Assembly: GCF_000027125.1 (NCBI RefSeq)
Contig: NC_017626.1
Strand: one strand, 5' to 3'
Origin: Escherichia coli 042
Lineage (GTDB): Bacteria > Pseudomonadota > Gammaproteobacteria > Enterobacterales > Enterobacteriaceae
DNA: 64,000 nt
This document shows positions 52,928 to 54,550 of this stretch, in pieces. A program made the translations under genes and the position numbers. Every line of letters begins with the position of its first letter. Position 1 is the first letter of the stretch. The notes below the pieces were generated by a model that was not told the origin of the DNA, made no database searches, and saw only the letters and a program-made list of their open reading frames with translations.

Positions 52928-54550
52928 ATGAATACTCTCCCTGATCATTCATGTGACGTGTTGATTATCGGTAGCGGCGCAGCCGGACTTTCACTGGCGC
53001 TGCGCCTGGCTGATCAGCATCAGGTCATCGTTCTAAGTAAAGGCCCGGTAACGGAAGGTTCAACATTTTATGCCCAGGGCGGTATTGCCGCCGTGTTTGA
53101 TGAAACTGACAGCATTGACTCGCATGTGGAAGACACATTGATTGCCGGGGGTGGTATTTGCGATCGCCATGCAGTTGAATTTGTCGCCAGCAATGCACGT
53201 TTCTGTGTGCAATGGTTAATCGATCAGGGGGTGTTGTTTGATACTCACATTCAGCCGAATGGCGAAGAAAGCTACCATCTGACCCGTGAAGGTGGACATA
53301 GTCACCGTCGTATTCTTCATGCTGCGGATGCCACCGGTAAAGAAGTAGAAACCACGCTAGTGAGCAAGGCGCAGAACCATCCGAATATTTGCGTGCTGGA
53401 GCGTAGCAACGCGGTTGATCTGATTGTCTCTGACAAAATTGGCCTGCCGGGCACGCGACGAGTTGTAGGCGCGTGGGTATGGAACCGAAATAAAGAAACG
53501 GTTGAAACCTGCCACGCAAAAGCGGTTGTGCTGGCAACCGGCGGTGCGTCGAAGGTTTATCAGTACACCACCAATCCGGATATTTCTTCTGGCGATGGCA
53601 TTGCTATGGCGTGGCGCGCGGGCTGCCGGGTCGCCAATCTCGAATTTAATCAGTTTCACCCTACCGCGCTCTATCACCCACAGGCACGAAATTTCCTGTT
53701 AACGGAAGCACTGCGCGGCGAAGGTGCTTATCTCAAGCGCCCGGATGGCACGCGTTTTATGCCCGATTTCGATGAGCGCGGCGAACTGGCCCCGCGCGAT
53801 ATTGTCGCCCGCGCTATTGATCATGAAATGAAACGCCTCGGTGCGGATTGTATGTATCTCGACATCAGCCATAAGCCTGCCGATTTTATTCGCCAGCATT
53901 TCCCGATGATCTATGAAAAGTTGCTCGGGCTGGGGATAGATCTCACGAAAGAACCGGTGCCGATTGTGCCTGCTGCACATTATACCTGCGGTGGTGTAAT
54001 GGTTGATGATCATGGGCGTACGGACGTCGAGGGCTTGTATGCCATTGGCGAAGTGAGTTATACCGGCTTACACGGCGCTAACCGCATGGCCTCGAATTCA
54101 TTGCTGGAGTGTCTGGTCTATGGCTGGTCGGCGGCAGAAGATATTACCAGACGTATGCCTTATGCGCGCGGCGTCAGTACGTTACCGCCGTGGGATGAAA
54201 GCCGCGTTGAGAATCCTGACGAGCTGGTGGTGATTCAACATAACTGGCACGAGCTACGTCTGTTTATGTGGGATTACGTTGGCATTGTGCGCACAACGAA
54301 GCGCCTGGAACGCGCCCTGCGGCGGATAACCATGCTCCAACAAGAAATAGACGAATATTACGCCCATTTCCGCGTCTCAAATAATTTGCTGGAGCTGCGT
54401 AATCTGGTACAGGTTGCCGAGTTGATTGTTCGCTGTGCGATGATGCGCAAGGAGAGCCGGGGGCTGCATTTTACGCTGGATTATCCGCAGCTACTCACCC
54501 ATTCCGGTCCGTCGATCCTTTCCCCCGGCATTAATTACATAAACAGATAA
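52928..54550 (+). CDS. nadB: L-aspartate oxidase (quinolinate synthase B)
   Basis: 540 aa with FAD-binding N-terminus [15 protein letters not shown]; succinate dehydrogenase/fumarate reductase flavoprotein family. Confidence 0.95.

Follow-up and report, generated by a model that had tools for sequence, protein, structure and literature searches.

Three convergent gene pairs overlap at their 3′ ends

The window analyzed here is a 64,000-nt stretch of the Escherichia coli 042 chromosome (NC_017626.1), a part of the E. coli core chromosome that runs from hscA to patZ. It is collinear over its whole length with EcPF15 (99.75% identity) and MG1655 (97.3% identity), so that the RefSeq annotation can be transferred to it (Table 1). 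Among the 10 junctions between convergent genes in the window, three (csiE/hcaT, mltF/tadA, and nadB/trmN) consist of overlapping coding sequences, while the remaining seven have spacers of 44–197 bp. The overlap lengths claimed by the first-pass annotation, 16 bp for nadB/trmN, 9 bp for csiE/hcaT, and 4 bp for mltF/tadA, are exact both in the lists of ORFs and in the raw sequence, and the same three overlaps are found in the RefSeq annotation of both EcPF15 and MG1655. Each pair consists of two protein-coding genes that face each other from opposite strands and have the last bases of their 3′ ends in common, which places all three among the convergent overlapping gene pairs.

Such overlaps could be created by miscalled gene ends, and a revision of start or stop calls had been named as an outcome that would remove them; we found nothing that supports this reading, whose probability we regard as practically nil, given that the stops are directly visible in the sequence, that full-length homologues of TrmN, NadB, TadA, and HcaT across genera corroborate the frames, and that the differences between longest-ORF and RefSeq starts (tadA, trmN, csiE) leave the overlaps unaffected. 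Indeed, calling other start codons cannot abolish tail-to-tail overlaps, because these depend on stop codons only, and with the stops read from the sequence all three stand.

Table 1. Positions in the window of the genes, overlaps, transcript ends, RNA structures, and known RNAs
Feature	Position	Strand	Source or remark
csiE CDS	7926–9206	+	ORF list, RefSeq; stop TGA 9204–9206
hcaT CDS	9198–10337	-	ORF list, RefSeq; stop TGA, complement of 9198–9200
csiE/hcaT 9-bp overlap, TCAGCATGA	9198–9206	both	sequence
csiE transcript 3′ end, published Term-seq	~9253	+	PMC7815308; mapped via MG1655 annotation
mltF CDS	38308–39864	+	ORF list, RefSeq; stop TAA 39862–39864
tadA CDS	39861–40364	-	ORF list, RefSeq; stop TAA, complement of 39861–39863
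mltF/tadA 4-bp overlap TTAA, two interlocked TAA stops	39861–39864	both	sequence
Rho region for tadA read-through	39571	-	PMC7815308; ~290 nt past tadA stop
nadB CDS, L-aspartate oxidase	52928–54550	+	ORF list, RefSeq; stop TAA 54548–54550
trmN/yfiC CDS, tRNA m6A37 methyltransferase	54535–55272	-	ORF list, RefSeq; stop TAA, complement of 54535–54537
nadB/trmN 16-bp overlap, TTACATAAACAGATAA	54535–54550	both	sequence
Stem-loop, arms 54557–54564 TGGGTCAG and 54594–54601 CTGACCCA	54557–54601	+	fold
Perfect 10-bp hairpin with 7-nt loop inside trmN, arms 54625–54634 and 54642–54651	54625–54651	+	fold
iscRS stability element	4206–4315	-	Rfam gathering level
GlmY	33683–33830	-	Rfam gathering level
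OhsC	43028–43104	+	Rfam gathering level
rncO	46516–46730	-	Rfam gathering level
AsrC, antisense RNA of rseC	49514–50345	+	Rfam gathering level
ES036/CssrF, downstream of srmB	56812–56854	-	Rfam gathering level

[quoted passage not shown] From the latter figure, about 1.03 convergent overlaps are expected per 64 kb, and the Poisson probability of three in one window is ~0.09 by our own calculation, for a window picked post hoc. Given that E. coli has roughly one such overlap per 64 kb, the presence of three here is unremarkable. The convergent pairs that the survey describes have the same layout, with opposite strands and a 3′ overlap of a few bases; they include the classic 4-bp interlocked stops TTAA, as at mltF/tadA, and are described as arising from chance placement of stop codons, and our three pairs show no difference from them in these described features (PMC4161906). 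Moreover, all three have already been published by name (PMC12288877), in agreement with the initial judgment that they are not a novelty. The three overlaps are a real and ordinary layout, already known and catalogued.

The overlaps are conserved at two junctions and variable at the third

Of 5426 complete E. coli genomes, at least 5424 contain the junction sequences; a 2.6-kb stretch around nadB/trmN, annotated in its matches as nadB, trmN, and srmB, is found in 5425 of the 5426, in several of them with 100% identity. The overlaps had been described as conserved, which holds beyond E. coli for nadB/trmN (75 of 79 species) and for csiE/hcaT (four of four taxa), while mltF/tadA is variable, being separated by a spacer in Salmonella and by IS1 in the one split E. 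coli genome examined.

A search with TrmN of species-representative genomes yielded 80 Enterobacteriaceae loci (70–96% identity). Of the 79 loci that contain nadB, 75 have an overlap of exactly 16 bp, and the other four have overlaps of 8, 8, 12, and 40 bp. TrmN ends with a conserved Phe-Tyr-Leu-Phe-Met (FYLFM) sequence, and the codons of its Phe-Tyr pair, TTY TAY, give TAA or TAG in the nadB frame on the opposite strand. The conservation of the 16-bp overlap is thus explained at the protein level, by constraint on the C-terminal FYLFM codons of TrmN.

For csiE/hcaT, we compared four other taxa and found an overlap in each of them, of 9 bp in E. fergusonii, 9 bp in Citrobacter sedlakii, 6 bp in Salmonella, and 4 bp in Klebsiella grimontii. 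The overlap with csiE persists in these taxa while the genes on the far side of hcaT vary: the other neighbor of hcaT is glyA, yphA, or a sugar transporter/epimerase, and not hcaR and the hca operon. From these differences between neighbors, hcaT therefore has a closer link with csiE than with the pathway from which it takes its name.

The 4-bp mltF/tadA overlap is retained in two of three genera, namely in Enterobacter kobei and Pseudescherichia. Salmonella enterica has no overlap, because a 50-bp REP-like spacer (GCCGGATAAGGCG..., locus positions 3053–3102) lies between tadA and mltF and TadA is longer (183 aa). Within E. coli, the junction query was split into two places in 93 complete genomes. 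In the split genome that we examined (NZ_CM182542.1, locus positions 2291–2988), an IS1A element inserted ~50 nt upstream of the usual mltF stop (window ~39808) separates mltF from tadA and shortens MltF to 510 aa. These split junctions, IS1A accounting for the one examined, show that the mltF/tadA overlap is dispensable.

Transcripts run into the partner gene and are probably ended there by Rho

Because no intergenic DNA remains at the three junctions, RNA polymerase on either strand enters the partner gene. We scanned ~1.2 kb around each junction for the consensus of intrinsic terminators and found no excess of terminator-like sites over shuffled sequences (2 vs. 1.3 expected, 4 vs. 1.9, and 0 vs. 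1.4 at the three junctions), nor any site at a junction that has a tract on each side, as in a bidirectional intrinsic terminator. The first-pass annotation had concluded that the overlaps leave no room for terminators. This is accurate in that there is neither intergenic space nor a classical terminator, but termination does occur, inside the coding sequence of the partner; no terminator is missing, since Rho-dependent termination and 3′ hairpins are located there.

Published transcript ends illustrate this for two of the pairs. The Term-seq 3′ end of csiE (MG1655 2666762, plus strand), classified as “primary csiE / antisense hcaT” (PMC7815308, supplementary file 1), lies within hcaT, 47 nt beyond the csiE stop (MG1655 2666715), and is not followed by a U-tract. 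At mltF/tadA, a region of Rho termination is reported antisense to mltF (MG1655 2697064, minus strand; Rho score 9.6, p 2e-18; PMC7815308, supplementary file 2), across which reads drop from 131 to 14 in untreated cells but go from 134 to 138 in the presence of the Rho inhibitor bicyclomycin. A second region is listed on the plus strand (MG1655 2697105, ~window 39612, score 3.2); the positions of these regions are coarse, as the scores are computed over 800-nt windows (PMC7815308). Together with the published overlap of transcripts for all three pairs, the csiE end within hcaT and the action of Rho at mltF/tadA bear out the proposal that transcripts of these genes read into the partner.

For nadB, trmN, and hcaT, there is neither a mapped 3′ end nor a Rho region in the data of Adams et al. 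2021 (PMC7815308), which likewise have no entry for a Rho termination region of csiE; none of these genes is present in the SMRT-Cappable-seq supplements. As none of the three is mapped (PMC7815308), we infer their mode of termination, and consider it to be Rho-dependent. In all six transcripts, a stretch rich in C over G, with a C/G ratio of 1.75–2.17 in an 80-nt window, lies within 60–360 nt after the stop codon; that of tadA, at +100 to +260, is just upstream of the reported Rho region. Nevertheless, 31% of random 400-nt stretches of the window also reach a C/G ratio of at least 1.75, which makes these stretches a weak support for Rho.

These observations fit what is known of untranslated RNA past a stop codon: Rho is described as terminating it in the next few hundred nucleotides, and its 3′ ends as being cut back to hairpins (Dar & Sorek 2018, PMC6061677; PMC7815308). 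The likeness extends to both strands at mltF/tadA and to the 3′ end of csiE without U-tract (PMC7815308). Suppression of read-through by Rho is shown for mltF/tadA, and would by our assessment apply to nadB, trmN, and hcaT as well.

Based on these results, the three junctions are very probably ordinary coding overlaps whose transcripts run into the partner gene and are ended by Rho, with possible trimming to hairpins. In this model, one frame would run on until the complementary sequence of its partner's last codons supplies a stop triplet: the nadB stop would correspond to the complement of the conserved Phe-Tyr codons of TrmN, and the mltF and tadA stops would interlock as TTAA. Once translation has ended and the ribosome has departed, the RNA downstream of the stop codon would be left as untranslated antisense sequence. 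Untranslated naked RNA is the classic substrate of Rho. Rho-dependent termination would then end the antisense read-through, possibly followed by exonuclease trimming back to hairpins within the partner coding sequence. The outcome would be a short, constitutive 3′ antisense overlap, of the type that a 2025 catalogue labels “convergent excludon.” We conclude that the junctions act as passive, Rho-bounded 3′ overlaps. The annotation of the three junctions is confirmed, which has little import beyond housekeeping, and they illustrate the known rule that, when convergent bacterial genes lack a spacer, the transcripts of each end within the other, mostly by the action of Rho.

Overlapping bidirectional intrinsic terminators of convergent genes have reportedly been described by Ju, Li & Liu in 2019. 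Such terminators, also the subject of a later preprint (Wang et al., bioRxiv 2022), resemble the present junctions in that there is little or no spacer and transcripts end in the territory of the partner. A further likeness is that a stem-loop may fix the end point. In contrast, the three junctions lack a GC-rich hairpin flanked by A- and U-tracts, and the evidence favors Rho.

A stem-loop inside trmN may be under synonymous constraint

The nadB-sense RNA folds after the stop codon into two hairpins (z -2.3 for 131 nt). The first one (54557–54601) is an 8-bp inverted repeat located 7–51 nt past the nadB stop, within trmN codons 224–239, its arms corresponding to codons 224–226 and 237–239. We ranked the codon invariance of 93 conserved trmN columns with at least four-fold degeneracy in 64 Enterobacteriaceae species, a post hoc test of constraint on the stem, conceived once the hairpin was known. 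The three most invariant columns are all in the stem arms (ACC238, 0.97; CTG237, 0.97; and the rare Gly codon GGG225, 0.95), and CCA226 and CGT224 are also among the top ten. The minimum of synonymous entropy in trmN lies in its last ~25 codons, a profile that was read for trmN only, the ungapped nadB alignment being misregistered by indels. In addition, minimum-free-energy folds of the nadB sense include the stem in 43 of 58 species (mean -23.5 kcal/mol), vs. 27 of 58 in the trmN sense (-17.1 kcal/mol). From the alignments, the synonymous-site invariance in the arms suggests selection for an RNA stem that is predicted to be more stable in the nadB sense, and hints that the junction may carry a cis element under selection and not be purely passive.

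Such an element could define the 3′ end of the nadB mRNA, the stem serving as a protective hairpin after Rho termination. Alternatively, it could position head-on collisions of polymerases, as proposed for bidirectional terminators, for which a stem-loop in the nascent RNA is reportedly required if collisions are to occur at defined positions (bioRxiv 10.1101/2022.10.23.513370). The codon invariance of the arms, the low entropy of the last ~25 codons, and the prevalence of the stem in nadB-sense folds speak for this reading. However, RNAalifold predicted no consensus structure for the 64 nt downstream of nadB, and covariation is minimal, with a single pair in four cells, a result that 34 of 500 shuffles equal. 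The fold of the E. coli stem is unexceptional (z only -1.1), the stem is not followed by a U-tract in the nadB sense, and no 3′ end is reported at this position (PMC7815308). Weighing both sides, we regard it as rather unlikely that the stem-loop is a selected element that defines the nadB 3′ end or positions collisions; equally doubtful is the fuller proposal that synonymous selection keeps the stem across Enterobacteriaceae, so that it would set the nadB 3′ end or the collisions and help to fix the 16-bp overlap. It is nonetheless the sole new lead of this analysis: if the constraint on synonymous sites of the trmN stem were true, an RNA signal would be embedded in the coding sequence of the neighboring gene.

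Two other roles for these hairpins were considered and rejected. The stem could have been an intrinsic terminator of trmN, combining a hairpin with the U-rich FYLFM codons. It is absent from the trmN-sense minimum-free-energy fold (z +0.3) and contains a C·A mismatch in most species, and termination there would remove the trmN stop codon. The second hairpin (54625–54651) is not a conserved nadB terminator: it is perfect in E. coli sensu stricto only, and C·A mismatches disrupt its pairing in E. albertii, E. whittamii, Citrobacter, and others. It has no U-tract on either strand.

Coupling of expression across the overlaps is improbable

The excludon concept is said to go back to Sesto et al. 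in 2013. ExcludonFinder, whose Table 1 names csiE-hcaT, mltF-tadA, and nadB-yfiC, defines for MG1655 a core set of 165 convergent excludons, each detected in half or more of 58 transcriptomes (Sanmartin et al., NAR 2025, PMC12288877). According to this literature, the transcripts of all three of our pairs overlap, as in a convergent excludon, and the likeness consists of opposite-strand neighbors with overlapping transcripts, listed by name (PMC12288877). The difference lies in the mutually exclusive expression that defines an excludon, via interference or RNase III, which is putative for these three pairs (PMC12288877).

If these excludons were functional, selection would keep the overlaps because convergent transcription makes the partners mutually exclusive, either through collision of polymerases or through RNase III cleavage of the 3′ duplex. 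In line with this, all three pairs fall under the RNA-seq definition used by ExcludonFinder (PMC12288877), and excludon pairs as a class are reported to have higher synteny and less single-cell co-expression. The 16-bp nadB/trmN overlap in 75 of 79 species and the persistent junction of hcaT with csiE where the hca operon is not adjacent could be read in the same way. However, the synteny and co-expression trends concern the class and are not specific to a pair. When double-stranded RNA was pulled down with p19, few 3′ duplexes were recovered, too few to validate convergent excludons. Furthermore, the conservation of nadB/trmN is explained by the protein constraint on the TrmN C terminus, and at mltF/tadA the overlap is lacking in Salmonella and disrupted by IS1 in the one split E. 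coli genome examined. Constant expression is required of housekeeping genes such as tadA, and the partners of these pairs have no known functional link.

Selection for mutual exclusion is thus improbable as the reason for the overlaps, and we give a similarly small chance to real physiological coupling at these pairs. Coupling of partner expression across the overlaps is a possibility, and we infer that it would be weak at most. Were mutual regulation true, it would link NAD synthesis with tRNA methylation (nadB/trmN), cell-wall turnover with tRNA editing (mltF/tadA), and a stationary-phase protein with a transporter (csiE/hcaT). Passive overlaps bounded by Rho are our preferred explanation for the three junctions.

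Other features of the window

The Rfam scan of the whole window at gathering level returned six matches, all of them known RNAs (Table 1), and no family at any of the three junctions. An IS3-family IS1397 copy, not annotated between srmB and yfiE in MG1655, lies between these two genes at 56926–58274 and is annotated in EcPF15. Finally, Adams et al. 2021 list a Rho region antisense to srmB (~56450, minus strand; MG1655 2713962, score 4.3), which implies an antisense transcript inside srmB that stops before trmN.
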